This document shows, piece by piece, positions 4,548 through 28,996 of a stretch of 39,345 nt of DNA. Position numbers and translations under genes: made by a program. The first letter of the stretch is position 1; each line of letters starts with the position of its first letter. Location: UHGV virus genome UHGV-1828728, one strand, 5' to 3'. Below the pieces are notes generated by a model, which did not search any database, was not told where the DNA came from, and saw only the letters and a program-made list of their open reading frames with translations. Origin of the DNA: a virus.

Positions 4548-7500
4548 ATGAACAAGCTATCTATGGGGGTGTTTCGCTGTTCAAGTGTCAGCGAAATATT
4601 GAAATACATTAGTGCAATAACATCTCACCGAGCGCCGATTAGATACGGCGTGGAAAAGGTGGAAGGCAAAAGCTATGACCGACTACGCCGGGAGGCGAAT
4701 CAGAAGGCGATAGATTTGCTTAATTCGCTGGTGGACGGCGCGACACTGACAGATGAACAGCGCCAGATCCTGGCTGGGTACACCGGCGAAGGCGGCATTG
4801 GCGGGTCCGTCTCCGAATATTACACACCAAAGCCGATCGCTGAAGGTGTCTGGGAGATCATGAAGCTCTACGGCGCGGACGTAGGTAACACTCTGGAACC
4901 ATCGGCGGGAACCGGCGTTTTTAATGAGACAAAACCGGTTGGTACGGTGATGACCGCGACTGAGATCAGCAGTGTTTCCGGTCGTATAAACCAGCTGTTG
5001 CACCCGGAAGACAGCGTACAGATTTCTCCGTTCGAACAACTGGCTGTAAGCACGCCTAACGATTCATTCGACCATGTTGTGGGTAACGTTCCGTTCGGTG
5101 GTCGTGATAACACACGCAACATCGATAAGCCTTACGCAGAAGAAACGGACATGGGTTCTTACTTCATGCTCCGCATGCTGGACAAGATAAAGCCAGGCGG
5201 ATTCATGTGCGTGATTGTGCCGCCGTCCATTGTTTCAGGTTCAAACATGAAGCGGTTACGCCTGCGCCTATCACGGAAAGCTGAATTTCTTGGTGCCCAC
5301 CGCTTGCCTACCGGTACTTTTGACGCAAACGGGACCAGTACAGTTGTTGATGTGGTGCTGATGCGCAAACATCCGGCAGAGATGGCTGAGAAAATCCCCC
5401 TGGTGGATGAAAGCACTCTCGAATCGGCAAATGTGCTTTGGCCAACGTTTATTTCTGGCAAGTGGTTTGAAAAGGACGGCCGCCGGTTTGTTCATGGCAC
5501 CCAGGAAAAGGGCTTCCAGGGGCGTATTGAGGTTCGTGCCGACGGTCAGATTGATAACCAGGCTCTTAAAGCGAAGCTGATTCATCGTTTCGAAAGCCGT
5601 ATCGACTGGTCTTTGCTCGATATGGCTGAACCGTCACCGACCGCAGACGTTGTTGGTGAAGGGGAAATGCGCCTGATTAATGGCGTATGGCAAAAATATG
5701 CTGGTGGTCGCTGGATTGAAGCTGATGCCGGGAAGGAACTTAAGATCGATGCTGCCAGTTATGGCGCGGATAGCTGGGAGGCTCTTCAGCGTAACCTGAC
5801 TACAACAGAAGGCCGTCTCGGCATGACATTTACCCAGATGGCAAATGTCCGCGATAAGTACACCACATCAATCAGCGACGATATGGTGCAGCTGGTGGAC
5901 TGGATTAACAGCCAGCCTGAAAAATACCGTGAACGCTTGTATCGCGGGGCGATGATTGGCCGGATGTTAATTGAATATCAGGACATGAAGGCCGCCGGGC
6001 ATAGTGCTGAACAAATCGAACAGCAGCGCCTTTCTCTGGTATCCCGTTTGCAGGCAGAGATTGACCGTTTTGGTAACCCCGGTCGCGGTCCGATAGCGAA
6101 ATTGTCGGGGAGCGGTGCGCGCGCCTGGTTTGCTTTCCGTGGTGCAATTAAGCTGGATGGCACTATTTCTGACGAGCTGACAGGGAAGCTGGTTACGCAT
6201 GATTCCAGCGCAAGTTATGACTCCACCAGCTATCAGGACACCCTGCGTTATCTCTATAGCGATCTCACCCGCGATCCAATCCAGCTCGATGATTTCCGCC
6301 TTGCGTTTACCGGCGAACTGCCAGCCAGTGATGAAGAGTTGCTTAATTTATTGGCCAGCACCCCCAGCGGCGACATTAACGAGATAGTGGCTCCAAAACA
6401 GGAATTCCTCGCCACACTCCCCGACGGTCCAGTAAAGAACAACGTCCTTAATCAGCTGGCAGCTATCGAAGAGAAGCGCATCAAGACGCCAGCAGAGAAT
6501 ATCCGGTTTAAGCTCAATAGCCGTTGGTTCGACCGTTCCGTCATTCTGGAATTTTTGCAGGAAAACGGCTATCCGGATCTGCGCTATGTGCAGTCAGTGC
6601 AGCTGGAAGGCGACGAAATGGTTTCTGACACCTATCACGGTGGTGATGGTCTGTTCGTCGGGCACCGATACGGTGTCGTCCAGCGCAAGGATAAAGAAAC
6701 AGGTGAGATTCGCTACGAGTGGGACCGTAAATCAGGTGAAAACGCGACCGGGTTCCCGGCACAGCTGGAAAAGTATCTCAATGGTGCGCGTATCGGTGGC
6801 AAAGATAGCGCGACGGCGAACGGCTACCGCGAGCAGATGGCACTGCTTGAGGACCAGTTCAATAAGTGGATCAAGACGCACGATCGCTACGATGAGCTGG
6901 TTGCCAAATACAACGATGTGTTCAATAGCAATATCCCGTATGAACACTCTGGCGATCCGCTTGGGTTGAAGGGATTAAGCGGTAAGCGCCAGCCATTTGA
7001 TTACCAGAATAGCGAGGTGCGCCGACTGTCCGAAGATGGGCGCGGCATCCTGGGCTTCGGCACCGGGCTGGGTAAAACCACGACCGCGCTGGCGCTTGAG
7101 GCGTTCAACTATGAGAACGGTCGCTCCACCCGTACTGCGTATGTAGTGCCTAAATCAGTGCTGGAAAATTGGTATTACGAAGCAAAAGAATTCCTGAGTG
7201 AAGAGGCATTCAGTAACTACTTGTTCGTCGGTCTTGATGTGCTGATGGATGGCGATCAGATTCGCCAGGTGCCGGTGCTCAATGAGAACGGTAAACCTGT
7301 TCTTGGTACTGATGGCACTCCAGTTATGCGCGATGCTCTTAAGCTGGCAGATGAAGCCACTATCACGGCGCGGATGAACGCGATCCCGCACTCAAATTAC
7401 CGTGCAGTCGTGTTTACCAAAGAACAATACGCCCGCATTCCGCTACGTGATGACACCGTAGATGAGCATGCACAAGACATGCTTTATGACTTCGTTGCCG

Positions 7501-10500
7501 CCGGGCGCGTAGCCAGCGCAATGGACTCCGACTCCCACCGCAAAGAGGCGGCGCGTCGCCGGGTATTGTCGGAGTATTCAGATACCGGTACCGAAAAAGC
7601 AGAGAAGTATCCGTACTTTGAGGATATGGGCTTCGACAGCGTGATTGCTGACGAAGGCCACAACTACCGCAATAGCTATAAAAATGGTCGCGAAGCGTCA
7701 CAGCTGGCCTATCTGCCCACCAGCGCGGTGGCGCAATCGGCGCGAGATATGGCAATCAAAAACGCGTACTTGATGAAAAAGAATGGCGGGCGCGGACCGG
7801 TTCTCCTGACTGCAACACCAGTCGTTAACACCCCGATCGATGCATACAACATGCTTTCTCATGTTCTGCCGAAGGAATACTGGCAGAAGATGGGGATCTA
7901 CAGTCCTGATGACTTCGTAAAATTCTTCGGCAAGACCAGGCTGGAAACGGTACAGAAAATCAGCGGCGAAGTTGAAGAAAAAATGGCGCTGGTGGGTTTT
8001 GAAAACCTTGATGCGCTGCGCGGCATATTCCATCGCTGGACAACGCTTAAAACAGCGGAAGACGTTAAGGATACCGTGGAGATCCCGGAACTGGACGAAC
8101 ACCAGCAGGATGCACCACTTACTGAAGAACAACTGGCGGCGTATGAAGAATTGCGTCAGCAGGCGGAAGCGGCGGCCAAAGCCAACAATGGTGTAACGAC
8201 CTCGGTCAATGAAGACGGCGTGATTGAGCACGAGAAAGCCCGTCCGATCTTCTCAATAATCAGGGATATGGACCGCGTATGTACTGACATGGACCTGTAC
8301 TATCGCCGGATCACCTATCGTTTCCTGCCGGAGTACGCCGATGCGGTGCAGCAGCTGGCAGACAGTTTGCCTAAACAAGCCACCAGCGAAGACGACGACA
8401 GTGATGATTCAATCACGCAGCAATCGCAATACTCCCTGATAGATAAGGGCGAGTTTATTCAGTTGCAGGTTCCGGAAGCGTTCGAGCAGGAAGTGAATAA
8501 GCGCCTGGCCAGGTTTGGCATTGACGAACAGACCGTAACTCACCCCGTTACGCCCAAATACGCGAAGCTGATTGCCACGCTGAAGGAGTTTTTCCCGGAA
8601 GGGAAGCAAATCATCTTCACCGATGAAAAAACGCAGCACCAGAAGCTCAAGCGCATTATCTGCAATGCTCTTAACCTTGAACCTTCAAAGGTGGGGATAC
8701 TGAATGCTCAGACGGTTGCCGAGGCAGGTAAAACCGGTAAGAAACTGAAAGCGGTTAAACCGCCGAAAGAGTTACCGGATGAACCAACAGATGCACAGAT
8801 AGCGAAATACAACGAGCAAATGGCTCTGTATGACGCCTATATCGCGCAGCAAAATGAAATGTCGTTGGGCGGTCTGGAAAAGATTGCAGCCGACTTCCAG
8901 GAGGGCCGGACTCCGATCATCATCTGCAACAAAAAGGCAGAGGTGGGTATCAACCTGCATCGAGGAACGACTGACATCCATCATCTGACGTTGCCATGGA
9001 CTCCAGCCAGTATTGCGCAACGAAACGGTCGCGGTGCCCGAGTTGGCTCCAACCGTGCAAGCGTTCGCGTTCACTACTACTGCGGCAAGGGTTCTTTCGA
9101 TGAATACCGACTGAAGACGCTGAAGCGTAAAGCAGGCTGGATCTCCGATATCCTCCGTTCAGATAAGTCAGAAATGGAGAACGCCGACGCCAACGATATG
9201 ATCGAAATGCAGATGTATACCGCTAAGGATGATGGCGAACGTCTGGCAATGATGCAGGTTCAAATGGATAAGGCGAAAGCCGCGCAACGCGCTCGCCAGA
9301 AAGAACAGGCTACTATCGACCTTCAGAACTACATCAAGGCGCAGCACGCAGCTGGTGAGGATGTGGAGGTGCTTACCGCTGAATTAGAGCGAAGCAAAGC
9401 GGAACTTGAAAAGACCACCGCCGACGTCGCCAAATTCAAACAGGCGGTAATGGCCAAAGCAGCTGATAACGCAGACTGGAAAGCCCGCTGGGGTAGCGTC
9501 CATCACACAGACCGTACGTTGTTAGCACAGTATCGCGCGTCGTTGAAAAGCGCCATTCAGCGCAAGGCTAATATCTCTCAGGCCATCTCCCGCTATGAGA
9601 AATTATTGAACCGTACTCAGAAGGCCGCGACGGATATCAAACGCCTGCGCCCGCTGGTGGAGGATGCAATAAATAAAGGCATTCTGGATGTTGATCCTGA
9701 TCTGGTTAACCATGCGAATGAGTTCCTTGTTATCGGCGATCGCTCATGGCGTGTAGGCCAATACTATGATTGTGCCGGTGATATCGTTCGCATTAAGTCG
9801 CTGGACTTCGACAGCCAGCGCGCAGACGTGGAGATCATCTTTACCTTCAAAGGCACCAAATCGGGTAACTGGGATGTGAAGACGCTGGATAAACAGGTTG
9901 ATGTAACTCCCGATGAAGATGCTGTTATGCAGAAAATCAGTGGTGGCGTCTCCATCGCCGGGATTAACGACATCATTTCCTGTGACGATTTCTACCGTTT
10001 CCAGCAGCGCGGCATGATCAAAATCACTGACTCATACGGCGTTCAGACTACAGAGTCAGGCTATAGCATCGATTTTGTTGGTACCTATACGGACCCACTG
10101 AAGCATGCGGTTTACCCGGATCGCCGTGACGGCGCGCTGAAGTCGTCAATTGCAAAATGGGTGCTTGGTATGATGTCGGAAGGGAATAACCGCCAGATCC
10201 GTTCGGCAGAAACATTCCTGGTTGAACTGTTTGGCTCCAATTATGGCGATGTAATCGCGTCATACGGAGATACGCTATCCCCTGAAGCAATTCAGGAGAA
10301 AATAGCGGATGCGATCGCCAGAATGCCGGAAAAAACAAGCCAGGGGGCTACTCGTAACGGGGATTCTGAACTTGAAGTCACCAATGCCATTTTCGGTACC
10401 AATGAGTTCCGGGCGTCAGATTATGAGATCACCACAGCACAGTTTGGCACCATTGGCATTTACAGCAATAAAGCCGAGATCAAGCAGGCAATGGACGCAG

Positions 10501-11264
10501 CAAGCGCGCGCATCGCAGCAGAACGGGAAGCCAATCTGAATCATGCAGTCGCCGCGCTGACTCAATCGTGGGTAACAGCAATCAGGGAGGCCGCCACCAC
10601 AGGGAAAATCACACCTGCAATAGCGGATGTCGTAAACGACGGCTCTAAATTTATGGATGCCTATCAAATGGATGCGGTGAAGTTGCCATCAGCCTATGGT
10701 CAACTCAGCTATCGCATGACCTACAACCTGGTATCAATGTTTTCCGACCTTGCCATCCTTGGGCTGGTGGATCTTAACGAGGTTACGCCGGAATTGCTCA
10801 GCATGCGCAAGAATCATGTGGAGATATTGCAGAGAATTAACACGGTTCTTGCCGGGCGCACCGATGAAGAGAAACAGGCCGACGCTGATCGGATAAACCT
10901 AGCCCTTGGCAACATCACGGAGGAAGAGATTGCCGCCAGAAACGAGAAACAAGAAGAGTTATCATCAATACAGGGTGATGCCACCAGCATAGCTCAGTCT
11001 CTTGGTCTGAATTATCGCGTATCCACCGCCGACCTGAAGATGATGTACGCACCAAAATTCGCCGCTGGCGAGGTATTTGGGCTTCAGGAAGCCTCAGGCA
11101 TGAAAGGCGTTCTTTTCCGTGCGAAAGACGCAATCAAGGCGAAATTCGGCGCTCGCTGGCTGCCAGCGAAGGCGAAGAACAGCGATTTCCCGGGTAACTG
11201 GTGGATTATCGAGACAAAACACAACGTGGCGGACGTTCTGGCCGTCATCCAACAATACGCATAA
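4548..11264 (+). CDS. darB: DarB-like antirestriction protein (methyltransferase-helicase fusion)
   Basis: 2238-aa ORF with ATG and AAGGA RBS. N-terminal region has an N6-adenine methyltransferase-like motif (VGNVPFGG); central region has SF2 helicase motifs (GFGTGLGKTT Walker A, VIADEGHNYRN DEGH box). Size and architecture match P1 DarB from memory. Confidence 0.85.
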   Translation: MNKLSMGVFRCSSVSEILKYISAITSHRAPIRYGVEKVEGKSYDRLRREANQKAIDLLNSLVDGATLTDEQRQILAGYTGEGGIGGSVSEYYTPKPIAEGVWEIMKLYGADVGNTLEPSAGTGVFNETKPVGTVMTATEISSVSGRINQLLHPEDSVQISPFEQLAVSTPNDSFDHVVGNVPFGGRDNTRNIDKPYAEETDMGSYFMLRMLDKIKPGGFMCVIVPPSIVSGSNMKRLRLRLSRKAEFLGAHRLPTGTFDANGTSTVVDVVLMRKHPAEMAEKIPLVDESTLESANVLWPTFISGKWFEKDGRRFVHGTQEKGFQGRIEVRADGQIDNQALKAKLIHRFESRIDWSLLDMAEPSPTADVVGEGEMRLINGVWQKYAGGRWIEADAGKELKIDAASYGADSWEALQRNLTTTEGRLGMTFTQMANVRDKYTTSISDDMVQLVDWINSQPEKYRERLYRGAMIGRMLIEYQDMKAAGHSAEQIEQQRLSLVSRLQAEIDRFGNPGRGPIAKLSGSGARAWFAFRGAIKLDGTISDELTGKLVTHDSSASYDSTSYQDTLRYLYSDLTRDPIQLDDFRLAFTGELPASDEELLNLLASTPSGDINEIVAPKQEFLATLPDGPVKNNVLNQLAAIEEKRIKTPAENIRFKLNSRWFDRSVILEFLQENGYPDLRYVQSVQLEGDEMVSDTYHGGDGLFVGHRYGVVQRKDKETGEIRYEWDRKSGENATGFPAQLEKYLNGARIGGKDSATANGYREQMALLEDQFNKWIKTHDRYDELVAKYNDVFNSNIPYEHSGDPLGLKGLSGKRQPFDYQNSEVRRLSEDGRGILGFGTGLGKTTTALALEAFNYENGRSTRTAYVVPKSVLENWYYEAKEFLSEEAFSNYLFVGLDVLMDGDQIRQVPVLNENGKPVLGTDGTPVMRDALKLADEATITARMNAIPHSNYRAVVFTKEQYARIPLRDDTVDEHAQDMLYDFVAAGRVASAMDSDSHRKEAARRRVLSEYSDTGTEKAEKYPYFEDMGFDSVIADEGHNYRNSYKNGREASQLAYLPTSAVAQSARDMAIKNAYLMKKNGGRGPVLLTATPVVNTPIDAYNMLSHVLPKEYWQKMGIYSPDDFVKFFGKTRLETVQKISGEVEEKMALVGFENLDALRGIFHRWTTLKTAEDVKDTVEIPELDEHQQDAPLTEEQLAAYEELRQQAEAAAKANNGVTTSVNEDGVIEHEKARPIFSIIRDMDRVCTDMDLYYRRITYRFLPEYADAVQQLADSLPKQATSEDDDSDDSITQQSQYSLIDKGEFIQLQVPEAFEQEVNKRLARFGIDEQTVTHPVTPKYAKLIATLKEFFPEGKQIIFTDEKTQHQKLKRIICNALNLEPSKVGILNAQTVAEAGKTGKKLKAVKPPKELPDEPTDAQIAKYNEQMALYDAYIAQQNEMSLGGLEKIAADFQEGRTPIIICNKKAEVGINLHRGTTDIHHLTLPWTPASIAQRNGRGARVGSNRASVRVHYYCGKGSFDEYRLKTLKRKAGWISDILRSDKSEMENADANDMIEMQMYTAKDDGERLAMMQVQMDKAKAAQRARQKEQATIDLQNYIKAQHAAGEDVEVLTAELERSKAELEKTTADVAKFKQAVMAKAADNADWKARWGSVHHTDRTLLAQYRASLKSAIQRKANISQAISRYEKLLNRTQKAATDIKRLRPLVEDAINKGILDVDPDLVNHANEFLVIGDRSWRVGQYYDCAGDIVRIKSLDFDSQRADVEIIFTFKGTKSGNWDVKTLDKQVDVTPDEDAVMQKISGGVSIAGINDIISCDDFYRFQQRGMIKITDSYGVQTTESGYSIDFVGTYTDPLKHAVYPDRRDGALKSSIAKWVLGMMSEGNNRQIRSAETFLVELFGSNYGDVIASYGDTLSPEAIQEKIADAIARMPEKTSQGATRNGDSELEVTNAIFGTNEFRASDYEITTAQFGTIGIYSNKAEIKQAMDAASARIAAEREANLNHAVAALTQSWVTAIREAATTGKITPAIADVVNDGSKFMDAYQMDAVKLPSAYGQLSYRMTYNLVSMFSDLAILGLVDLNEVTPELLSMRKNHVEILQRINTVLAGRTDEEKQADADRINLALGNITEEEIAARNEKQEELSSIQGDATSIAQSLGLNYRVSTADLKMMYAPKFAAGEVFGLQEASGMKGVLFRAKDAIKAKFGARWLPAKAKNSDFPGNWWIIETKHNVADVLAVIQQYA

Positions 11265-11297: not shown

Positions 11298-11738
11298 ATG
11301 GCCACACTATCTGATACAATAAAACCGAATAAAACATATCTTGAGGCGGTACTCCGTACAGCGTTGTTAGGAAAGACAGAAGACGAATACGTTGATTTCT
11401 TCCTGTCAGGGCTACGCGGGCGATTACTGAAAAATCCCCGCCTGTACCGCAGCTATGGTCCATACTGGCCGGAAATTAAAAAATTATTACTGGAGCGCGG
11501 TTATGGTAATTTCGGTCGTCTCGTTGACCGTGACGTTCGCAAAATTTACCGTTATGACCGCCCGGCGCTAACACTCATAGCCGCGACGCTCTACAGCCAG
11601 GAGCGTTTTGATAATGGTCAGATATACTCAGCCTGGCATTTACTGCCAGTGCCTGAAGAAGTTGACGACCAGGACTATGAGTTTGAGTCTTACGATTTGG
11701 AAGTTGAAGCCTTGGCACAGGCTGGAGAGAAAACTTGA
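11298..11738 (+). CDS. ulx: Ulx-like protein (downstream of darB)
   Basis: 146-aa ORF directly after darB in the same orientation; named by P1 synteny (darB-ulx-lxc) only. No SD seen before the ATG. Confidence 0.5.
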   Translation: MATLSDTIKPNKTYLEAVLRTALLGKTEDEYVDFFLSGLRGRLLKNPRLYRSYGPYWPEIKKLLLERGYGNFGRLVDRDVRKIYRYDRPALTLIAATLYSQERFDNGQIYSAWHLLPVPEEVDDQDYEFESYDLEVEALAQAGEKT

Positions 11739-11983
11739 AAAAGCGATACTACACAGTAAAGCATGGGACGCTACGAGCATTACAAGAGTTTGCTGATAAG
11801 CATAACGTTGAGGTGCGCAGGGAAGGGGGAAGTAAAGCTCTGCGCATGTACCGCCCGGACGGGAAATGGCGTACGGTCGTCGATTTCAAAACTAACAGCG
11901 TTCCCCAGGGCGTCCGCGACCGGGCATTCGAAGAATGGGAGCAAATCATCATAGATAATGCATTGCTCCTGAATGCTGATTAA
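11735..11983 (+). CDS. lxc: Lxc-like small protein (C1 co-repressor in P1)
   Basis: 82-aa ORF with TTG start overlapping the ulx stop (TTGA); position and size fit P1 lxc from memory. Confidence 0.45.
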   Translation: MKKRYYTVKHGTLRALQEFADKHNVEVRREGGSKALRMYRPDGKWRTVVDFKTNSVPQGVRDRAFEEWEQIIIDNALLLNAD

Positions 11984-11987
11984 GTTT

Positions 11988-12020
11988 GTCTAGCCCGGTT
12001 AATACCGGGCTGGTTTAGAC
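11988..12020. terminator. hairpin terminator at the lxc / cassette junction
   Basis: Imperfect hairpin GTCTAGCCCGG-TTAATA-CCGGGCTGGTTTAGAC between convergent genes; T-richness after it is only moderate. Confidence 0.45.
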
Positions 12021-12041
12021 ATCTTAAGTGGGTGTTAATTT

Positions 12042-12551
12042 TTAATTATGGTTAATCATATCTAACAGTATTTTTAGCTTCCTGCATGTGTTATCAATAT
12101 CTTTACATAATATGACATCAAGGATGTTTGGTAGTCCTAATACCATATGAGAAATGAAACCCTCGCCAACTTGTAGATTATGGGTAGTCTCATCTGGATT
12201 CACGTATTCAATGGTTTTAGTTTTATTTATCCCATAATCTTTATAACAGATGATTACAGGAATGTTCTTCTGTTCAGCAATCTGCAACTCTATTCCTAGC
12301 CCTGTTGATGGAAAACTACATTCTGCAATTATTACATCAGATTTCTCAACCATATCTCTGTCCCAAATGTAACAAAGTCTAGATTTGTTACTTTCAGGGC
12401 GCTTTGATAATTCTGGGTCACTATTTATCAAAGCATATTTTACGTTGTTATTTTGAGATAAACCTTTTGCAAGGCTGTGAATCCAATTACTGTACTCATG
12501 GAAAATTTCCCTTGGAACATGAGTTAAAGCGCATGCGATATATATATTCAT
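12042..12551 (-). CDS. nucleoside 2-deoxyribosyltransferase-like (N-glycosidase fold) protein, cassette gene B
   Basis: 169 aa; N-terminal MNIYIACAL and internal DVIIAECSFPSTGLGIELQIAEQKNIPVI resemble the NDT/Rcl family strand and catalytic-Glu motif (GLGMELGYA in Lactobacillus NDT, from memory). ATG overlaps the stop of gene A (TAATG). AT-rich. Confidence 0.75.
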   Translation of the reverse strand: MNIYIACALTHVPREIFHEYSNWIHSLAKGLSQNNNVKYALINSDPELSKRPESNKSRLCYIWDRDMVEKSDVIIAECSFPSTGLGIELQIAEQKNIPVIICYKDYGINKTKTIEYVNPDETTHNLQVGEGFISHMVLGLPNILDVILCKDIDNTCRKLKILLDMINHN

Positions 12552-13591
12552 TAAGAAGCAGACCTTACGTTTGGGATAAGAAATTGGTGTCCAGTAATTT
12601 CAGATGAAATTGCATCTATAAACTGTGACGGAGATTGTTGAATAAATTCAGCAATAATCCAGTTTTCTTTTTCATTTAGTAACTGTCTTAGCTTAAGTGG
12701 GTCATACCGACATAGCTCACTTAATCGATGCATAGCTGCTAGGGTTATAACCAATGGCGATATTGAAACAGAAGTATGCTCAGATTGATTGTTTTTACGT
12801 TTGAGATACCAAAGAGTCTCTGCGCCATTGATATAGTAAAGATTTCTTCTTATTTTTTGATGAAATTCAGTTAATTGCGGCATGTTGGACGATTGATTTT
12901 CATTAAAATCAAGTAATGATTCTACTGATTTTATTTTGTACTTTTCTCTTTCAAACAATTCGAACGCTGGCGGTAGAATGTCGAAAACTGTGTCGAACCG
13001 AAAATCCTTGGATAAAATCGCAGTGAAAAACAGGCTATTGTCTGACTCATTCAAAACGAACTCAGCATCGATCAGTGGAATAAATATATCATCAGTTACA
13101 TCATAAGTAAGGCAATATGTACGATGAATATATGGCAATCCAGAAAAAAGGTTTTTTATATTGTACACCCCCTCATGAGAGGTGCCGTCAATATATTTTG
13201 AAAAAGACGGAAGTATACCCTCATTTTTTATTTTTACTTTTATATCAGATAAGTTATCAATTTGGGCTGCATTTTCACCCCTAGCAACACCATGATGCTG
13301 TTTGAAGTTTATATTGCGAGATGAAAGTAACGCCTTTACTGCATTCATGAATGAATAATAGTGCAAAAGTGGGGCTGATTGGTTGGGTAAACCATTGGCC
13401 GCCTGATTAAATACTTTTGCTTGCTCCCAATAAAAAAGAGCCTCATCTTTTTCGTTTCGCTTTAACCAGAGTTCGACAAAATCCCAATGACTGTATGTAA
13501 GTACATTCCTTGCGGTTAGGTCAGGGTTTAATGATGCTTTATGAGGCTTCATGACCTTGTTCCTAATTTTCAGCGGCTTAATATTCATCAT
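12551..13591 (-). CDS. hypothetical protein, cassette gene A (no recognisable domain)
   Basis: 346-aa ORF with tandem ATG start, GGAGG SD 9 nt upstream, sigma70-like promoter further upstream; no catalytic motif identifiable by eye. Confidence 0.75.
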   Translation of the reverse strand: MMNIKPLKIRNKVMKPHKASLNPDLTARNVLTYSHWDFVELWLKRNEKDEALFYWEQAKVFNQAANGLPNQSAPLLHYYSFMNAVKALLSSRNINFKQHHGVARGENAAQIDNLSDIKVKIKNEGILPSFSKYIDGTSHEGVYNIKNLFSGLPYIHRTYCLTYDVTDDIFIPLIDAEFVLNESDNSLFFTAILSKDFRFDTVFDILPPAFELFEREKYKIKSVESLLDFNENQSSNMPQLTEFHQKIRRNLYYINGAETLWYLKRKNNQSEHTSVSISPLVITLAAMHRLSELCRYDPLKLRQLLNEKENWIIAEFIQQSPSQFIDAISSEITGHQFLIPNVRSAS

Positions 13592-13620
13592 TGTAATAAT
13601 CCTCCACCCAAAGTTACTAG

Positions 13621-13649
13621 ATTGTAAAATATATATTTTTGTTCCACAA
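13621..13649 (-). promoter_or_regulatory. sigma70-like promoter of the AT-rich cassette
   Basis: Minus strand: -35 TTGTGG (13644-13649), 17-nt spacer, -10 TACAAT (13621-13626), about 30 nt upstream of the gene A ATG; no C1 operator-like sequence seen here. Confidence 0.45.
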
Positions 13650-13681
13650 CAAAAATCTCTATTGGCTACTGACGTAATTAA

Positions 13682-14323
13682 TTATAAATAGTTTTCTTTG
13701 CCGGTAAGTAAGCCTTGAGGAACTCGCTTGTCGGCTAGACATTGGGTTCCGCGAATTATGTTAATCAGAGGGCTTAGTAACGATGGTTCCTGGCGGGCCT
13801 CAACTTCTCCAGCCATTGCCCTGATGTAGTCGGCGCTTGCAACGTTGTTATATTCCGTTGCGAAGCAGCATAACAACGACAGAACGTGCTCTGTCGTTAT
13901 TTCGCTCCAGTTGATGTTGAAAAATTCATCGCCTTTTTTGTCGTGTTCGGAATCGAAGATGCTTTGGTGGAGGATGTATTTGCCGGATTCTTTGCGCGGT
14001 AACTTGATCGCTTTCTGGCGTTCCAGCTCCTTGTAAATCTGCATTGCTTCAATTAGTACCGGCCTGCCGTTCATGAAGGGATCGCGCAACCTTACACGCT
14101 GGCCAACTCGACCCGTAATAAAGCTGTTTTCCTCTTCCACCAGCACGATAAAACCCTTTTCCTCTTTTTCTCGCAATTCGCGCAGCAGCTGGAGTTCCAT
14201 ATCGCGGCGGCGTTCAGGGTAGCTGGTCCGCTCAGCCATTATCAGCTCATTGTTGATCCATGCGGCAGTCATTGACGCCGGTTTGCCGACGCTCATCGAA
14301 ACAACGCATATTTTCTTATCCAT
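13682..14323 (-). CDS. mat: Mat-like protein (P1 backbone gene adjacent to ref)
   Basis: 213-aa ORF from ATG 14323 (AGGGG SD; the track start 14350 is GTG); normal GC; sits next to ref as mat does in P1. Name by synteny only. Confidence 0.5.
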   Translation of the reverse strand: MDKKICVVSMSVGKPASMTAAWINNELIMAERTSYPERRRDMELQLLRELREKEEKGFIVLVEEENSFITGRVGQRVRLRDPFMNGRPVLIEAMQIYKELERQKAIKLPRKESGKYILHQSIFDSEHDKKGDEFFNINWSEITTEHVLSLLCCFATEYNNVASADYIRAMAGEVEARQEPSLLSPLINIIRGTQCLADKRVPQGLLTGKENYL

Positions 14324-14511
14324 AGCGCCCCTACAAAAAAGAAAAGCCACCAGCGGCGGCTTAGCAATACAACTGAAGGTAGCGCCCGGTACTCAGACTG
14401 TGCCGTCCATGGAATATTTGAAAAGGGATCCATCCGTACCGGGCATGTGATGATTCTGACTGAAGTCACTTGTCAGTTGTCAATTATTTCAGATTAAAAA
14501 TAATATATTTA

Positions 14512-15072
14512 TTAGTGCATGCTGTTTGCCATCTCATAGGCGTCAGCCAGCAACTCCATCTCTGACTTGTTCAGCAAGGTGAATTCTTTCTTGCCTCCAA
14601 CCACACCATCGGCATGAACAGGGACCAGCCAGGGGTATTTTTCTCTTACTTCAGCCGGTGCTGCATGCTGGTGGTGCCATCTACAAAGTGGCAATTGCTT
14701 TTTGTGACAACCAGGCGCGGTACGACCGGAGATATGGTGCAGAGACACCTCTTCAGATATTACTCCATGCATATAGCAGGCAATGCAGGGGAGAGCGCCA
14801 AGAGCATTGGCTATGCGCCGCTCCTCCGCCGTCGGTGTTCGTCCCTTCAAGCCACGAGATTTTATTTTTACCGCGCTTTTCCGCGTTTTGCTGGCTGGTG
14901 GGCGCTCTTTCTGTTTAGCGATACGGCGGTCGATAGTATTCCGCATTTTCTGATATTGAGATTCTCGCCAGGCCGGATCAGCCAACTTCTCCCGTTGCCG
15001 AGCGATCGCTCGTTCTCTGGCTGCCTTCTGCCACTTACGGTGCTGTTCAATTTTTTGTTCGATTGTTTTCAT
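14512..15072 (-). CDS. ref: Ref (recombination enhancement function, HNH-type endonuclease)
   Basis: 186-aa product starting MKTIEQKIEQHRKWQ..., Cys/His-rich C-terminal half; matches P1 Ref from memory. The track ORF extends upstream to 15177 but Ref begins at the internal ATG. Confidence 0.85.
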   Translation of the reverse strand: MKTIEQKIEQHRKWQKAARERAIARQREKLADPAWRESQYQKMRNTIDRRIAKQKERPPASKTRKSAVKIKSRGLKGRTPTAEERRIANALGALPCIACYMHGVISEEVSLHHISGRTAPGCHKKQLPLCRWHHQHAAPAEVREKYPWLVPVHADGVVGGKKEFTLLNKSEMELLADAYEMANSMH

Positions 15073-15077
15073 ATGGC

Positions 15078-15103
15078 AAAAAAAAGGCGGCCTGATGGCC
15101 GCC
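15078..15103 (-). terminator. terminator-like hairpin in the ref leader (possible attenuator)
   Basis: On the minus strand, stem GGCGGCC/GGCCGCC with loop ATCA followed by T8, ending 5 nt before the ref ATG. Confidence 0.4.
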
Positions 15104-15163
15104 AATGATGTCAAGGAGTTAAGTAATGGCAACGTCTTCGTAGTTGACAAAAACTGCGGCTCA

Positions 15164-15187
15164 ATTATAGCAATCAATTAGAGCAAT
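15164..15187 (-). promoter_or_regulatory. ref promoter with overlapping C1 operator
   Basis: Minus strand ATTGCTCTAATTGATTGC TATAAT: operator core (15171-15187) immediately upstream of a perfect -10 TATAAT (15164-15169). Confidence 0.5.
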
Positions 15188-15247: not shown

Positions 15248-15321
15248 CCTTCTTGATTGATTGGATGCGGAATACAAACCCGCTCTTTTGTGCAGCCTGG
15301 CTCCTTGCCAGGCTTTTTTTT
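15248..15321 (+). ncRNA. candidate small RNA (promoter plus intrinsic terminator, no ORF)
   Basis: Extended -10 TGcTATACT (15239-15247), about 45 nt containing GATTGATTGG, then hairpin AGCCTGGC-TCCTT-GCCAGGCT (15294-15314) and T8. No coding potential on + strand. Existence as an RNA is inference. Confidence 0.25.
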
Positions 15322-15631
15322 ATTTCATCATGGAAGCTGTTAATGCTTTGGACCTTGCTGAACTGATTGAGAGGGCTTTGTCAACGTGCCCCAAAAATTC
15401 GCCAAACTCAGACATCACTTTAGCAAAACCGCGCCGTGCTTCTTCCTCGGTGGCATTCATCACGAAATGTTCAGCACTACGCATACTTCTGACAGGGAAC
15501 GCAACGGATATTGAGTCAATATCAGGCATTCTATCGCTCAGCTTTACAGTGACAATGACGGCTGGCGACTGAATATTAGTGCTCACTGACAGCACTACAT
15601 ATTTTCCGTCGATGTTGAAATTCTTTCTCAT
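15320..15631 (-). CDS. cra: Cra-like protein (cre-associated)
   Basis: 103-aa ORF between cre and ref with ATG and GGTGA SD; C1 operator-like site just upstream. Name by synteny. Confidence 0.6.
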   Translation of the reverse strand: MRKNFNIDGKYVVLSVSTNIQSPAVIVTVKLSDRMPDIDSISVAFPVRSMRSAEHFVMNATEEEARRGFAKVMSEFGEFLGHVDKALSISSARSKALTASMMK

Positions 15632-15681: not shown

Positions 15682-16713
15682 CTAATCGCCATCTTCCAGC
15701 AGGCGCACCATTGCCCCTGTTTCACTATCCAGGTTACGGATATAGTTCATGACAATATTTACGTTGGTCCAGCCACCAGCTTGCATGATCTCCGGTATTG
15801 AAACTCCGGCGCGGGCCATATCTCGCGCGGCTCCGACACGGGCACTGTGTCCAGACCAGGCCAGGTACCTCTGACCAGAGTCATCCTTAGCCCCGTAAAT
15901 CAATCGGTGAGTTGCTTCAAAAATCCCTTCCAGGGCGCGAGTTGATAGCTGGCTGGTGGATGATGGCGAGGCAACACCATTTTTTCTGACCCGGCAAAAC
16001 AAGTAGTTATTCGGATCATCAGCCACACCAGAGACGGAAATCCATCGCTCGACCAGTTTAGTTACCCCCAGGCTAAGTGCCTTCTCTACACCTGCGGTGC
16101 TAACCAGCGTTTTCGTTCTGCCAATATGGATTAACATTCTCCCACCGTCAGTACGTGAGATATCTTTAACCCTGATCCTGGCAATTTCGGCTATACGTAA
16201 CAGGGTGTTATAAGCAATCCCCAGAAATGCCAGATTCCGTATATCCTGGCAGCGATCGCTATTTCCCATGAGTGAACGAACCTGGTCGAAATCAGTGCGT
16301 TCGAACGCCAGCGCCTGTTTTGCACGCTCACCGGCATCAACGTTTTCTTTTCGGATCCGTCGCATGACCAGTGAAACAGCATTGCTGTCACTTGGTCGTG
16401 GCAGCCCGGACCGACGATGAAGCATATTTAGCTGGCCCAAATGTTGCTGGATAGTTTTCACTGCCAGACCGCGCGCCTGAAGATATAGAAGATAATCGCG
16501 AACATCTTCAGGTTCTGCGGGAAACCATTTCCGGTTATTCAACTTGCACCATGCCGCCCATGACCGGCAAACGGACAGAAGCATTTTCCAGGTATGCTCA
16601 GAAAACGCCTGGCGATCCCTGAACATGTCCATCAGGTTCTTGCGAACCTCATCACTCGTTGCATCGACCGGTAATGCAGGCAAATTTTGGTGTACGGTCA
16701 GTAAATTGGACAT
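15682..16713 (-). CDS. cre: Cre tyrosine recombinase
   Basis: 343-aa product beginning MSNLLTVHQNLPALPVDATSDEVRKNLMDMFRDRQAFSEHTWKMLLSVCRSWAAWCKLNNRKWFPAEPEDVRDYLLYLQARGLAVKTIQQHLGQLNMLHRRSGLPRPSDSNAVSLVMRRIRKENVDAGERAKQALAFERTDFDQVRSLM and ending NIVMNYIRNLDSETGAMVRLLEDGD; matches canonical Cre from memory apart from a few substitutions. Confidence 0.97.
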   Translation of the reverse strand: MSNLLTVHQNLPALPVDATSDEVRKNLMDMFRDRQAFSEHTWKMLLSVCRSWAAWCKLNNRKWFPAEPEDVRDYLLYLQARGLAVKTIQQHLGQLNMLHRRSGLPRPSDSNAVSLVMRRIRKENVDAGERAKQALAFERTDFDQVRSLMGNSDRCQDIRNLAFLGIAYNTLLRIAEIARIRVKDISRTDGGRMLIHIGRTKTLVSTAGVEKALSLGVTKLVERWISVSGVADDPNNYLFCRVRKNGVASPSSTSQLSTRALEGIFEATHRLIYGAKDDSGQRYLAWSGHSARVGAARDMARAGVSIPEIMQAGGWTNVNIVMNYIRNLDSETGAMVRLLEDGD

Positions 16714-16720
16714 TTAACAC

Positions 16721-16942
16721 TCAGATAATGGTTTTAAGTAAAGTGTACAGGATCGGCTCTGCCTTTACCTGTTTATGGTTCTCGTCATAGAAACGCCAGC
16801 GACCGCGCGTGCGTTCTATTTTCTCTTCACCGCGCGATAATGACAGTTGACAACTATCACGATCAAACCCTTTTGCCCGCCAGTAACCACGGTTTTTCTC
16901 AAGCTCAATATGAGTGGACACTTTAGCAGCTGAATATCCCAT
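16721..16942 (-). CDS. hypothetical 73-aa protein between loxP and cre
   Basis: ATG with GAGGTG SD at 5-nt spacing; stop 8 nt before the cre ATG; lies in what is normally treated as the cre promoter region. Confidence 0.45.
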   Translation of the reverse strand: MGYSAAKVSTHIELEKNRGYWRAKGFDRDSCQLSLSRGEEKIERTRGRWRFYDENHKQVKAEPILYTLLKTII

Positions 16943-24404: not shown

Positions 24405-24489
24405 TACATTGAAAAGGCATAGTTTGTGAAAGCGGGGTTTGTAGGCGCGCCACGCTGGGGGCTAATCACATTTCTCCCCCATCTTGCCG

Positions 24490-24741
24490 TTATTTTTTTG
24501 GTGCATCCTCGTTCTGATACACCGGATCGCTCCCTTTTGGCAACTGGAGGCTTAACTGCCGGTAGTGCCGTAGCCGTTCCATGAAATAGGCGCGCAGGTT
24601 TTCCGGTTGCTCACGGGCCACCTGCTCTGCAATCACAGGTATATTCAGCCGTTCTTTGTAAGCAACGCCGCTGGCGGCAAGGTCTACGTTCACCTTGTCT
24701 CGCTCTTCCTGGCTTTTAGCTGCTATATTTCGATCTGACAC
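24490..24741 (-). CDS. hot: Hot (DNA polymerase III theta subunit homologue)
   Basis: 83-aa product with [11 protein letters not shown](A/S)GVA(F/Y)KER-type similarity to E. coli HolE from memory; GTG start with GGAGG SD. Confidence 0.85.
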
Positions 24742-24773
24742 AAGAAACCTCCAGGAGTTAGTGGATCAGGCAC

Positions 24774-25124
24774 ATGCACAATAACGTTCTCAATGTTAGC
24801 CGTTCAATTCAGACAATCAGAGACTGCACCAGTGTGGTGGCATCAATCCCATTGCGAAACAGCATAGACGAACTGCAAATTCGTGTATTGAATCCGAATC
24901 AGGCTAATAAGCAATTGCGCTTTATTTTGACGCTGAAAAGTGAAACAGAGGGGATAAAGCACAGCGTAAAAGTGTTTTCTGAGGCCATTCTGCTTAATGG
25001 GAAGCTCCGGCATCTGGTAAGGCCAGAACGTCAATATCCTGACGTCCTGGCGCGTGAAAAAGACCTTCTTTCTGAAGTTCAGGATAGGGTGATCGATTTC
25101 GTCAAATGCTATCCCCTGCATTGA
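24774..25124 (+). CDS. hypothetical protein (possible lxr-region ORF)
   Basis: 116-aa ORF on + strand in an otherwise minus-strand block; weak RBS; no LexA box found nearby. Confidence 0.3.
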   Translation: MHNNVLNVSRSIQTIRDCTSVVASIPLRNSIDELQIRVLNPNQANKQLRFILTLKSETEGIKHSVKVFSEAILLNGKLRHLVRPERQYPDVLAREKDLLSEVQDRVIDFVKCYPLH

Positions 25125-25324
25125 GGGCAGGTGTTCCCTTCCGCAAAGTAGGGAAAATTGCTATCAAGTTCATCACACCATCTGCGATGGTCGTAGCACC
25201 AAAAAGCCTCCCACGGTAAACCAAAAGACTTCATCCACTGGGACACTCGATCTAGTATATCTGCTGGTGGCAGTTCTTCTGGCAATAATTTGCCTGATAA
25301 TTCCCTTTCCGCCCGCGACAGCAT
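25109..25324 (-). CDS. hypothetical small Cys-rich protein
   Basis: 71-aa ORF with C-terminal C-x-C/CPQC motif; ATG directly follows an A7 run shared with an upstream overlapping ORF. Confidence 0.4.
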   Translation of the reverse strand: MLSRAERELSGKLLPEELPPADILDRVSQWMKSFGLPWEAFWCYDHRRWCDELDSNFPYFAEGNTCPQCRG

Positions 25325-25375
25325 TTTTTTGAGGCTCGCGTTCTCTTTTTCAGCTCATCTACGCGCACCTGTAAT

Positions 25376-26026
25376 TCAGCTTTCGTTGGCATGGTCCACC
25401 TCATGCTTTTCAGCCACCAGCGGCAATAAAGCCCTGGCCATCTTATGAACCAATAGTGCATCAATAATGCCAAGCGTATGCCCCGGCTTAATGTTTAATG
25501 CCGCCTCAAGGTGACACCTTTCCAGGTCACTTTTCTCGGCTTGTTTATGATGATCTGGTGTAATAACGTCGCCCAAAACACGGCTAATTCTTTCTCGTAA
25601 TTGCTGGGTGCCAGCACACTTGATCGCTGTATCGTGGAGACGGTTAACCAGTTCGCGATAAACATGCGGCTTAATGCGGATACGTTCACCGGTGACGCCC
25701 TTTCCTGGCGCTGGCACCGAACTATCCGGAATATCCGGATAGTTGCCAGCCTCGTAAGCTACCCGCAGCCAGTGCATGAATGTTTCAGTGGACACACAAC
25801 CACAGTCCACATCGATTTTTCCGCGTTGCTGTTCCAGCCAATGCTCAAAATTCAATCTACACGTATTACTTTCATGTTGCTCTTTTTGTCTCAAGGCCAG
25901 CATCTGCTGGGCTATTTCCAATACTTCATCTGCCGTATATCCAGCACCGTGACCATACATTTCGATACGGGAAATAATCTCTGATATGCGCTCTTCAGTG
26001 ATTCTGGTCATTTCTTTTTGCGCCAT
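25376..26026 (-). CDS. hypothetical protein
   Basis: 216-aa ORF; ATG overlaps the stop of the upstream membrane-protein gene. Confidence 0.6.
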   Translation of the reverse strand: MAQKEMTRITEERISEIISRIEMYGHGAGYTADEVLEIAQQMLALRQKEQHESNTCRLNFEHWLEQQRGKIDVDCGCVSTETFMHWLRVAYEAGNYPDIPDSSVPAPGKGVTGERIRIKPHVYRELVNRLHDTAIKCAGTQQLRERISRVLGDVITPDHHKQAEKSDLERCHLEAALNIKPGHTLGIIDALLVHKMARALLPLVAEKHEVDHANES

Positions 26027-26382
26027 TTCTTTTCACATTCCTTAGTCCATTCTTCAATGTTCATTTTGGCAATATCAGTCATTCCATCACCTAAGAAATA
26101 CTTTTTCCGGTATGTCTTGCACTTAAACCACACTACAACAGCCACCAGCCAGAAAATAAAAGGCCATACAGCAATACCAACGACAGCCGCGATAAAGCCC
26201 AATAGCCATAAATGAAGCTCTCCAACTTCTGTTTCCGGCAATATTCTTAAAGAATTAAACAGCAGGATGAACGAATGGTCGTATGCATTGGCAGTATAAG
26301 ACATGCAATCCATATAATTAAAGTCATAGCCTGCGGCTGCCGCCCATAATGGGCGGTCAAGAAAATGTTTTAGTGTCATCAT
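26008..26382 (-). CDS. hypothetical membrane protein
   Basis: 124 aa with a long hydrophobic segment (LWLLGFIAAVVGIAVWPFIFWLVAVVVWF) and lysine-rich C-terminus. Confidence 0.55.
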   Translation of the reverse strand: MMTLKHFLDRPLWAAAAGYDFNYMDCMSYTANAYDHSFILLFNSLRILPETEVGELHLWLLGFIAAVVGIAVWPFIFWLVAVVVWFKCKTYRKKYFLGDGMTDIAKMNIEEWTKECEKKWRKKK

Positions 26383-26388
26383 ATAAAT

Positions 26389-26682
26389 TTAAGGTTCAGA
26401 CCAGTTATCTTCAATAGCAATGCTTAATCTTTGTAGCCATTCTGCTAATTTCAGCATTGCTTCTCTTTCGCTTAAACCACGAGGAAAATCATCAAGCGAA
26501 ATTGTTGGCTTGAATCCCCCGCAATTATCCATTTCAACTGTCAGATTTTGTTCCAGCACGGTATTTCTTACGCGGCTATTGTGCCGGAGCAAATATACTG
26601 AGCGTGATTTATTGGTTTTGTGGTCTAGCTTATATTCGGTAAGTATCATCTGGCTTTTGCCATGATTATTACCTCTCCACAT
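26389..26682 (-). CDS. hypothetical protein
   Basis: 97-aa version from ATG 26682 with GAGGT SD; the track ORF extends to a TTG at 26778. Confidence 0.45.
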   Translation of the reverse strand: MWRGNNHGKSQMILTEYKLDHKTNKSRSVYLLRHNSRVRNTVLEQNLTVEMDNCGGFKPTISLDDFPRGLSEREAMLKLAEWLQRLSIAIEDNWSEP

Positions 26683-26860
26683 ACTTACCTCACTTAATAA
26701 AACAACTCCATGCGTAGTTGATGATTTTTTCCCACGTAATATAAATCTGCACTCCGGCAGTAAAACCAAAGCCAACAATTGCTGAAAAAATCAAAACATT
26801 TACTTTTGACATTATAAATTTTCTCTCGGTGTCGTAGGTGATAGCACCATAATTGATAAT

Positions 26861-27094
26861 TTAGTGAGTTAGCAGTTCCATTTTTTTGATGATTTCCGCA
26901 TGAGCATCATCGTTATCAACACTTAGCTCGTTTAATGCTTCTCGCACTACATCAACTTCTTCAGGCTGAAAGAAGTCGTCGCGGTAATCACCAAATAGAA
27001 CCGAAACCAGCCTGCCACCAGCAACATCAAGATTGGCGCTAACAGGTGGCTCTTTGCCATCCTCAAATTCGACTACAAAAGTTAATTTTCCCAT
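26861..27094 (-). CDS. hypothetical acidic protein
   Basis: 77 aa; ATG with GGGGGT SD at 5 nt. Confidence 0.5.
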   Translation of the reverse strand: MGKLTFVVEFEDGKEPPVSANLDVAGGRLVSVLFGDYRDDFFQPEEVDVVREALNELSVDNDDAHAEIIKKMELLTH

Positions 27095-27170
27095 CGTTAC
27101 CCCCAGAAGATAAAAATAGCGGCAATCGCCATAGCTACGCCTACAATCGCAAATGCTTCAGGCCAGCTTA

Positions 27171-27431
27171 TTACCTCACCTCCAGTCTCCATACCGCCTG
27201 ACCAATCCGGCTGGCATGGGTATCTTTGGATACTGTTCCATCTTTAGCCAGCTCCATAAGAATTTTGCGCAAATCTGCCGACCGCCATTCTTCATCAGGA
27301 AATTCCTTCTCCATTGCCAACCGCAGATTCCAGGTTGCCATCCTGAATGGATATTCCCCGCCGAGAGCTTTATCTTGCAGGGCAGCCCGGGAACGCATCA
27401 CCTGCAAAACCTTCTCTTTTACATCCATCAT
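27171..27431 (-). CDS. hypothetical protein
   Basis: 86 aa; ATG overlaps the upstream gene stop (ATGA). Confidence 0.5.
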   Translation of the reverse strand: MMDVKEKVLQVMRSRAALQDKALGGEYPFRMATWNLRLAMEKEFPDEEWRSADLRKILMELAKDGTVSKDTHASRIGQAVWRLEVR

Positions 27432-28995: not shown

Positions 28996-28996
28996 A

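Follow-up and report, generated by a model that had tools for sequence, protein, structure and literature searches.

The interval between lxc and mat in this P1-like phage-plasmid raises the question of what has taken the place of the EcoP1I genes of P1 and what it might do for its carrier. Phage-plasmids of the P1 type are frequent in E. coli and Salmonella from clinical and food-chain sources. In the window (the whole stretch of 39,345 nucleotides analysed, virus genome UHGV-1828728), an earlier note had described an AT-rich two-gene cassette at this position and had read it as a candidate defence or counter-defence module.

Borders and layout of the lxc-mat slot

We aligned the window by local BLAST to seven P1-type relatives (P1, P1 variants, SJ46, JL22, Ro157c2YLVW and RCS47). 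The results showed that P1-type homology breaks off at the stop codon of lxc (11983) and restarts at the stop codon of mat (13682), the end of homology varying from 11981 to 12002 and its restart from 13669 to 13814 depending on the relative. This gap lies exactly where P1 has res-mod, which confirmed the replacement proposed earlier; P1 itself carries res, mod and IS5 in the interval. The gene order given earlier for P1 (cre-cra-ref-mat) was slightly off, since P1 has cra-cre-c8-ref-mat; c8 and cra of the window are listed below.

11735..11983, plus strand: lxc, backbone gene that bounds the slot on the left; 97.5-98.6% identical to its counterparts in P1 relatives through the stop codon
11984..13681, no strand: variable segment replacing P1 res-mod, from BLAST breakpoints and composition; 1,698 bp, 35% G+C
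12042..12551, minus strand: ORF-B, 169 aa, predicted to be a nucleotide N-glycosidase with the NDT/DNPH1 fold
12551..13591, minus strand: ORF-A, 346 aa, YaaC-family protein
13682..14350, minus strand: mat, backbone gene that bounds the slot on the right; the 3' end of mat is itself mosaic
15320-15631, minus strand: c8
16721-16942, minus strand: cra

The two minus-strand ORFs of 346 and 169 aa were found as previously described, with a one-base overlap at a TAATG stop/start, and the cassette adjoins the darB-ulx anti-restriction operon. Neither ORF is Res-like or Mod-like, as had been stated: the domain search gave only YaaC and weak NDT matches, and the Res helicase-nuclease and Mod methyltransferase domains of type III restriction-modification systems were absent from the cassette.

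The occupants of this slot differ among sister phage-plasmids. It holds EcoP1I res-mod in P1, a RelA/SpoT protein of 373 aa with the same sequence as PDB 7ZTB (CapRelSJ46) in SJ46, a PIN protein partly matching PDC-S34 in JL22, and an unannotated DUF2971 ORF matching PDC-S31 in MH422554, while it is empty in RCS47. According to published papers, CapRelSJ46 is an antiphage fused toxin-antitoxin of phage SJ46. The lxc-mat slot is variable, as the earlier note had supposed, and elsewhere it holds proven defence systems or PADLOC candidates. EcoP1I and CapRelSJ46 occupy exactly the same slot as the cassette, but the former is a type III restriction-modification system and the latter a fused toxSAS, and their proteins and mechanisms are unrelated to those of the cassette.

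Composition and regulatory signals

The G+C content is 0.350 in the segment 11984-13681, compared with 0.521 in darB and 0.486 from mat to cre. The contrast with the backbone that had been claimed was thus real, whereas the figures of 23-28% given for it were local minima in a segment of 35% overall. Horizontal acquisition is supported on comparative evidence. The signals considered around the two genes were the following.

11984..12020, no strand: imperfect G+C-rich hairpin between the convergent lxc (plus) and ORF-B (minus), lacking a T-run
13601..13605, minus strand: Shine-Dalgarno GGAGG, 9 nt 5' of the ORF-A ATG at 13591, read from the sequence
13621..13649, minus strand: weak candidate sigma70 promoter TTGTGG-17-TACAAT, seen by eye and absent from the scan calls
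13636..13655, no strand: TTTTTGTT-gtgg-AACAAAAA, an inverted repeat that overlaps the -35 of the candidate promoter, read from the sequence

The strong Shine-Dalgarno sequence reported earlier is present at 13605-13601. The sigma70-like promoter attributed to the cassette was not recovered: the promoter scan called none upstream of ORF-A, promoter-like sites in the region were fewer than expected by chance (4 versus 7.4 in shuffled sequence), and the single weak candidate found by eye is statistically unsupported. The inverted repeat is a possible operator, and a search for P1 C1 operators found none near the cassette. The hairpin folds with a dG of -22.8 kcal/mol (z = -5.7) and is probably a bidirectional transcription stop; the terminator scan called no canonical terminator at the cassette. 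Its existence was thereby upheld, but the attribution of this hairpin (11988-12020 in the earlier note) to the P1 backbone was ruled out by the different hairpins that follow lxc in RCS47 and SJ46, and it is therefore part of the variable segment and specific to the cargo variant.

ORF-B has the predicted fold of NDT and DNPH1 enzymes

Profile and structure searches of the kind proposed in the earlier note assigned ORF-A to YaaC (PF14175) and ORF-B to the NDT/DNPH1 fold. The match of ORF-B to Pfam PF05014 (E 1.8e-4, 22.1 bits) is under the 28.8-bit cut-off of the family; several ORF-B homologues have a precomputed PF05014 match, and a PDB profile search matched ORF-B to Rcl/DNPH1. The AF2 model of ORF-B (pLDDT 96.5) has the flavodoxin-like fold of NDT proteins, and its top 25 Foldseek matches were all DNPH1, NDT or BcmB (E 4e-6 to 8e-5, probability 1.00).

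Alignment by hhalign (probability 94.7%) placed D64 and E88 of ORF-B on D80 and E104 of DNPH1, for which we used what we take to be the DNPH1 sequence, numbered consistently with the mutants D80A and Y24F named in PDB entries. ORF-B therefore has the catalytic Asp and Glu of the NDT superfamily. Y4, D64 and E88 are invariant in the ORF-B family and S82 is nearly so (46 sequences for D64 and E88). Y4 is located on strand 1, like Y24 of DNPH1, in a region that the hhalign alignment stops short of. S82 is the conserved serine of the PSxG motif, which in DNPH1 binds phosphate. The catalytic triad of the NDT superfamily consists of Tyr, Asp (or Asn) and Glu, and the hydrolases among its members have dNMP or rNMP as substrates (PMC12884076).

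The best sequence and fold matches to ORF-B are DNPH1/Rcl, BcmB/MilB and phage DmtZ, with which the catalytic Asp and Glu align, but identity to them is only 14-18%. ORF-B differs from them by a C-terminal segment specific to its family (YxNPD...HxLQxGxG...MxLGxP), and in place of a GSIRGG-type loop after strand 1 it has ACALTHVPR.

The NDT fold is also that of the defence effector of Retron-Eco1 (Ec86), which is inhibited by its partner and, once active, reportedly depletes adenine derivatives (bioRxiv 10.1101/2023.08.16.553469). The cassette differs from this retron in having neither a reverse transcriptase nor an msr/msd RNA and in having a YaaC/HEPN-like partner, and ORF-B consists of one domain of 169 aa and lacks the C-terminal lobe of the retron effector. 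The PADLOC retron-effector models did not match ORF-B, the 1.7-kb cassette contains only two long ORFs, and no neighbouring reverse transcriptase was present in the contexts that we read.

ORF-A is a YaaC-family protein with a predicted split HEPN-like bundle

ORF-A matched the YaaC family PF14175 over its full length with 157.7 bits (gathering cut-off 27), residues 34-332 aligning with profile positions 18-307 of 307. Classical Bacillus YaaC is chromosomal and functionally uncharacterised, and membership of this family alone is therefore no sign of defence. The predicted structure of ORF-A contains a helical bundle with the up-down arrangement of four helices of HEPN domains, split into about 35-91 and 279-333 by an inserted alpha/beta domain at about 100-275 (about 175 residues). 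The residues invariant in the family alignment are H156-R157, H288-R289 and R295-Y296, and the canonical HEPN motif Rx4-6H, expected where the last core helix begins, is not among the invariant columns. Residues K18, T32, T158, S222, N341 and R343 are specific to the subfamily. YaaC thus differs from HEPN Abi and toxin proteins (HEPN-MNT, AbiJ) in its lack of Rx4-6H and in the insert that splits its bundle, and an RNase role for YaaC is speculative because the motif is missing. The YaaC alignment gave nothing in a profile search of PDB sequences, even at E = 10, and a fold search of the predicted viral protein structures of BFVD gave only noise.

No PADLOC-DB v2.0.0 family matched ORF-A or ORF-B at E <= 1, nothing usable was obtained for either protein from NCBIfam or PHROGs, and our literature search found nothing that links YaaC to phages and nothing relevant on PF14175 or on YaaC with HEPN. 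In the part consulted of a DefenseFinder v1.3.0 survey of P1-like elements, the systems listed are type III restriction-modification, dGTPase, PrrC and CapRel, with no mention of YaaC, which is likewise absent from the main text of a survey of HEPN proteins. The cassette is missed by current defence-finding tools.

The two genes form a conserved and co-evolving pair

A genome scan showed an NDT-like gene directly downstream of YaaC, on the same strand, for all YaaC genes scoring at least 434 bits (33/33), as at all ten YaaC loci collected beforehand, while none of those scoring 407 bits or less had an NDT-like neighbour. The distance between the two genes was mostly from -20 to +15 bp, and the pairwise identities of the two proteins were correlated (Mantel r = 0.69, a value that none of 2000 permutations reached). 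In many phyla the two genes stay together and evolve as one unit, adjacent in every genome with this YaaC subfamily. YaaC proteins of a solo subfamily have the same invariant residues and no conserved partner, all of their downstream ORFs being singletons with no weak NDT-like match; such solo proteins occur beside type I restriction-modification genes.

A compact, overlapping operon of two co-evolving partners could also be a toxin-antitoxin or addiction module, in which the toxin would be either the N-glycosidase or a YaaC nuclease, the other protein would neutralise it, and post-segregational killing would stabilise the plasmid prophage or island, with defence secondary or absent. Carriage on a low-copy plasmid prophage and on integrase-linked islands is consistent with this explanation, as is the presence in the same slot of CapRelSJ46, itself a fused toxin-antitoxin. 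However, P1-like elements already have phd-doc, and a solo YaaC with the same invariant residues and no partner fits an obligate toxin-antidote pair poorly. Many toxin-antitoxin systems found in such slots double as defence systems, so that this explanation overlaps with that of a defence module; we regard it as unlikely.

A fusion of the NDT-like domain to YaaC was looked for among distant relatives and not found, the long ones (233-565 aa) having low-complexity or coiled-coil-like C-terminal extensions instead.

Genomic contexts and distribution of the pair

The pair is located in an E. coli island that also contains BrxR, an integrase, DpdD/PLD/DEAD-helicase, JetD and ScoMcrA, and in a P2-like prophage cargo site between tail genes S and V in Yersinia; it adjoins an AbiTii gene in Kangiella and an integrase in Myxococcus. 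In a survey of the 140 genes lying no more than two genes away from 38 loci, which was small, used crude gene calls and had no background control, neighbours matched models for type I restriction-modification, AAA_21/AbiEii, OLD-TOPRIM, PDC-M19, PDC-M45, mads, PbeA and AriA. Placement in defence islands and prophage cargo sites was thus recurrent in this small sample lacking a background control. The G+C content of the pair was below that of its flanks in 9/9 genomes checked.

These contexts bear on the proposal that the genes are an accessory pair for nucleotide salvage or stress metabolism that takes no part in conflicts between genetic elements. NDT and DNPH1 enzymes of the classical kind do act in nucleoside salvage and nucleotide-pool sanitation, and the Aeromonas locus lies among metabolic genes with no obvious defence neighbours. 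A salvage role is nevertheless very improbable in our view, given the patchy spread of the pair, its low G+C content, its prophage cargo sites, its restriction-modification, Abi and integrase neighbours, and its obligatory pairing with a HEPN-like protein.

The cassette was found in 109 of 5,426 complete E. coli genomes (about 2%). The ulx-lxc backbone was present in 699 genomes of the same set, and the cassette in about 16% of genomes with a P1-like backbone. It is among the most frequent occupants of the main defence slot of P1-like elements. A tblastn search for YaaC gave no match among 50,697 deposited phage genomes, and IMG/VR contained only 14 loci in 2.9 million viral contigs, four of them P1-like. 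Most homologous pairs are on bacterial chromosomes of many phyla, in non-phage contexts.

This distribution bears on the two functions between which the earlier note had left the choice. In counter-defence, the N-glycosidase would destroy an immune signalling nucleotide of the host or reshape the nucleotide pool in favour of P1, next to darB and ulx, whose anti-restriction operon adjoins the cassette. Phage NDT-like enzymes are known to reshape nucleotide pools, such as DmtZ in phages with Z-containing DNA (PMC12884076). Counter-defence is however less likely than defence, because the pair is mostly chromosomal and YaaC is absent from the 50,697 deposited phage genomes and has no match in BFVD; the other occupants of the slot are moreover defence systems and not anti-defence genes. 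We consider counter-defence quite improbable and favour defence.

Proposed function of the cassette

Taken together, the slot occupants, the conserved pair and the defence-island-like contexts support the reading of the variable slot as the site of a candidate defence module. We consider it probable on balance, from sequence comparison and models, that the two genes make up a new anti-phage module, acquired horizontally and carried as cargo in the lxc-mat defence slot, with a nucleotide N-glycosidase as its effector. We infer the defence activity, the substrate, the sensor and effector roles and the formation of a complex.

Expression would probably take place in the plasmid (lysogenic) state without control by the C1 repressor, with translation of ORF-A and ORF-B coupled and their products presumably joined in a complex. 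As a DNPH1-like N-glycosidase, ORF-B would split 5'-phosphorylated nucleotides (dNMP, NMP or a related compound) by releasing their base, and ORF-A, with its HEPN-like bundle and inserted domain, would be the sensor and regulator that restrains it. Upon infection, ORF-B would block phage replication by depleting the nucleotide pool or poisoning it. ORF-A may also be a second, RNA-directed effector.

More tentatively, and with our confidence a little short of even, YaaC-NDT could be a widespread unnamed anti-phage system in which a DNPH1-like nucleotide N-glycosidase is under the control of a HEPN-like protein whose His/Arg site is atypical and whose inserted domain is a sensor, or in which YaaC is activated by a base-exchanged nucleotide made by the N-glycosidase. 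Solo YaaC would then be a related single-gene defence family.

If active, the cassette would represent a new combination of effector and sensor among nucleotide-depleting defence systems, would provide a function for the uncharacterised YaaC family, and would help to account for how carrier strains differ in susceptibility to phages and how mobile elements compete in them. The lxc-mat interval is a precisely bounded site of exchange, for which RCS47 provides the empty reference, and is useful for mining further cargo.

Organization of the lxc-mat interval

The window is that of a P1-like phage-plasmid, and the genes on either side of the cassette are arranged as follows.

4548-11264, plus strand, darB
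11298-11738, plus strand, ulx
11735-11983, plus strand, lxc
12042-12551, minus strand, ORF-B (169 aa)
12551-13591, minus strand, ORF-A (346 aa)
13682-14350, minus strand, mat
14512-15177, minus strand, ref
15320-15631, minus strand, c8
15682-16713, minus strand, cre
16721-16942, minus strand, cra

The earlier note had placed cra between cre and ref, but c8 occupies that position and cra lies beyond cre, as in P1. ORF-A and ORF-B overlap by one base in a TAATG stop/start, and the G+C content of 11984-13681 is 0.350, compared with 0.521 for darB and 0.486 for the mat-to-cre region.

BLAST comparisons with P1, two P1 variants, SJ46, JL22, Ro157c2YLVW, and RCS47 showed that backbone identity is 97.5-98.6% as far as the lxc stop codon, where homology ends (11981-12002), and that homology restarts at the 3' end of mat or shortly inside it (13669-13814). 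The alignment to P1 bore out the proposed replacement of res-mod. The relatives also carry differing cargo between lxc and mat.

Occupants of the lxc-mat interval in relatives
P1: res and mod (EcoP1I), with IS5
SJ46: 373-aa RelA/SpoT protein, identical to PDB 7ZTB (CapRelSJ46)
JL22: PIN-domain protein
MH422554: unannotated 346-aa DUF2971 ORF, matching the PADLOC candidate PDC-S31
Ro157c2YLVW and one P1 isolate: AraC-type regulator and EAL protein
RCS47: 39 bp only

CapRelSJ46 has been described as an antiphage fused toxin-antitoxin of phage SJ46. The DUF2971/PDC-S31 ORF lies at 1037-2077 of locus L094, taken from the 'Punavirus P1' record MH422554.1, whose deposited annotation leaves an empty gap there. 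The 3' end of mat (13682-13814) is a mosaic in which the homology of the relatives restarts at 13669, 13682, 13742, 13800 or 13814; cargo-swapping recombination therefore also occurs inside mat.

Flanking signals of the cassette

A GGAGG motif is located 9 nt 5' of the ORF-A start codon. The sigma70-like promoter attributed to the cassette in the earlier note was not recovered: the promoter scan made no call, the only candidate upstream of ORF-A (TTGTGG-17-TACAAT) is weak, and promoter-like sites in this region are fewer than in shuffled sequence. The candidate -35 is overlapped by an 8-bp inverted repeat, TTTTTGTT-gtgg-AACAAAAA (13636-13655), a putative site that a regulator may bind. A search for P1 C1 operators found none near the cassette, the closest being Oref at 15171, so that the lytic switch probably does not govern expression of the cassette. 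The G+C-rich hairpin that follows lxc, previously ascribed to the backbone, is real (dG -22.8 kcal/mol, z -5.7), but it differs between P1-like variants and thus moves with the cargo, not with the backbone.

Predicted products of ORF-A and ORF-B

ORF-A is a full-length member of the YaaC family (PF14175, E 5.9e-46). Its confident AlphaFold model (pLDDT 92.5) is a helical bundle into which an alpha/beta region of about 175 residues is inserted. This family lacks the canonical HEPN Rx4-6H motif; its invariant residues are N83, K86, H100, H156-R157, H288-R289, R295-Y296, N310-W311, E315, and E331. A solo YaaC subfamily with no conserved neighbour keeps the same invariant core residues without a partner; YaaC thus has an intrinsic site. 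In view of this subfamily and of the conserved His/Arg residues, YaaC may itself be a nuclease.

The PF05014 match of ORF-B is weak; the profile of its family matches Rcl/DNPH1 in PDB, and the top folds of its model (pLDDT 96.5) are DNPH1, NDT, and the CMP N-glycosidase BcmB. In the alignment to DNPH1, the catalytic D80 and E104 correspond to D64 and E88 of ORF-B; Y4, D64, and E88 are invariant in the family and S82, the serine of the PSxG motif, nearly so. Profile, fold, aligned catalytic residues, and conservation place ORF-B in the NDT superfamily, whose defining feature is a Tyr/Asp(Asn)/Glu triad and whose hydrolases act on dNMPs or rNMPs (PMC12884076). Because of this triad, the fold, the aligned D64/E88, and the invariant residues, ORF-B is probably an active N-glycosidase with a phosphorylated nucleotide as its substrate. 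This NDT-like family is small, with 34 representatives at E <= 1e-30 among 1.84 billion. More distant NDT-like relatives (P0293-P0364, 233-565 aa) share the motifs THVP, PSTGxGxE, and GxGGxSxMxxGxP with ORF-B and have long charged C-terminal extensions with a conserved 'F(N/H)P...Y...FP' element at the end.

Pairing and genomic contexts

In database searches, ORF-A had 757 relatives and ORF-B had 238. When one genome per species was scanned and YaaC was scored against a subfamily profile, an NDT-like gene was immediately downstream at 33 of 33 loci with YaaC at 434 bits or more, while no such gene followed YaaC at 407 bits or less, even with relaxed thresholds; the sole ambiguous case was a locus with a frameshifted YaaC (L078). 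Paired loci were found in Gamma-, Beta-, and Alphaproteobacteria, Campylobacterota, Myxococcota, Bacteroidota, Spirochaetota, Planctomycetota, and Armatimonadota, with a spacing of mostly -20 to +15 bp between the genes. The pair co-evolves at the protein level (Mantel r = 0.69, reached in 0 of 2000 permutations).

In E. coli, chromosomal copies of the pair belong to an island that is bounded by an integrase and includes BrxR, DpdD/PLD/helicase, JetD, and ScoMcrA genes; the pair adjoins an AbiTii gene in Kangiella, is close to an integrase in Myxococcus, and is surrounded by ordinary genes in Aeromonas. A P2-like prophage of Yersinia enterocolitica carries the pair between its tail genes S and V. 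This S-V cargo site (L007, 8500-13900) also holds a 263-aa ORF, a 66-aa ORF, and an 8xMP-family gene, and a Gp49/HTH_37 (HigB/HigA-like) pair is found just past gene V. The 140 genes located no more than two positions from 38 paired loci included, as recurrent families, type I R-M subunits, AAA_21/AbiEii, and OLD-type TOPRIM ATPases and, as recurrent PADLOC models, PDC-M19, PDC-M45, mads, PbeA, and AriA. The G+C content of the pair was below that of its surroundings in all nine genomes tested. A metabolic role is disfavoured by these contexts and by the patchy distribution of the pair.

Solo YaaC genes (loci L031-L087) often adjoin HsdM, HsdS, Mrr, MmeI, and integrase genes, a placement beside type I R-M genes that resembles that of PrrC within type I R-M loci; solo YaaC may be a single-gene defence family.

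Prevalence of the cassette

The cassette was found at 95-100% identity in 85 PLSDB plasmids, 78 of them predicted to be non-mobilisable. Of 5,426 complete E. coli genomes, 109 have it, in nearly every case on a plasmid of about 63-370 kb (mostly 70-110 kb). The ulx-lxc backbone is present in 699 of the 5,426 genomes; the cassette is therefore carried by about 16% of P1-like elements. At least 1000 public contigs encode the exact ORF-A protein, and at least 1000 the exact ORF-B protein, under no names other than 'YaaC family protein', 'hypothetical protein' or 'nucleoside 2-deoxyribosyltransferase'. Both DNA search and tblastn showed the cassette to be absent from the deposited phage collection, and a search of IMG/VR gave only 14 loci, four of them P1-like. 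A counter-defence function, one of the two proposed in the earlier note, is disfavoured because the pair is nearly absent from phages.

Proposed function

We consider it somewhat probable that the cassette is a new two-gene defence module, since sister elements carry proven defence systems in this slot, the two genes are strictly paired and co-evolve, they occur in defence islands and at prophage cargo sites, and the enzymatic site is preserved. A plain addiction module is a rival explanation of the same pair. The nearest functional precedent for a defence module of this kind comes from retron Ec86, whose NDT-like effector is inactive in complex and after activation reportedly depletes adenine derivatives (bioRxiv 10.1101/2023.08.16.553469). 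The NDT-like enzyme could instead make a base-exchanged signal, and either protein of the pair could be the sensor or the executor.

No PADLOC v2 model matches ORF-A or ORF-B. In the passages covered, a survey of P1-like elements from 2025, made with DefenseFinder, lists type III R-M, dGTPase, PrrC, and CapRel but not the YaaC-NDT pair. The literature searched gave no link of YaaC/PF14175 to phages or HEPN, and a description may exist elsewhere or in newer tool releases.

Other variable sites in the window

A 5-kb segment (25758-30767) with no counterpart in the compared P1 stretches (P1 1-12000 and 60000-94800) is a second cargo site of the same element. Its insertion point corresponds to P1 coordinate 85182, within the pmgT/pmgU region, and its small minus-strand ORFs include those of a DUF551 protein and an Ead/Ea22-like protein. 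At 24420-25410, most of the P1 interval with lxr, hot, upfM-O, and pmgV has been replaced or has diverged, and alignment to P1 is confined to 249 bp (85% identity) and 347 bp (96% identity).
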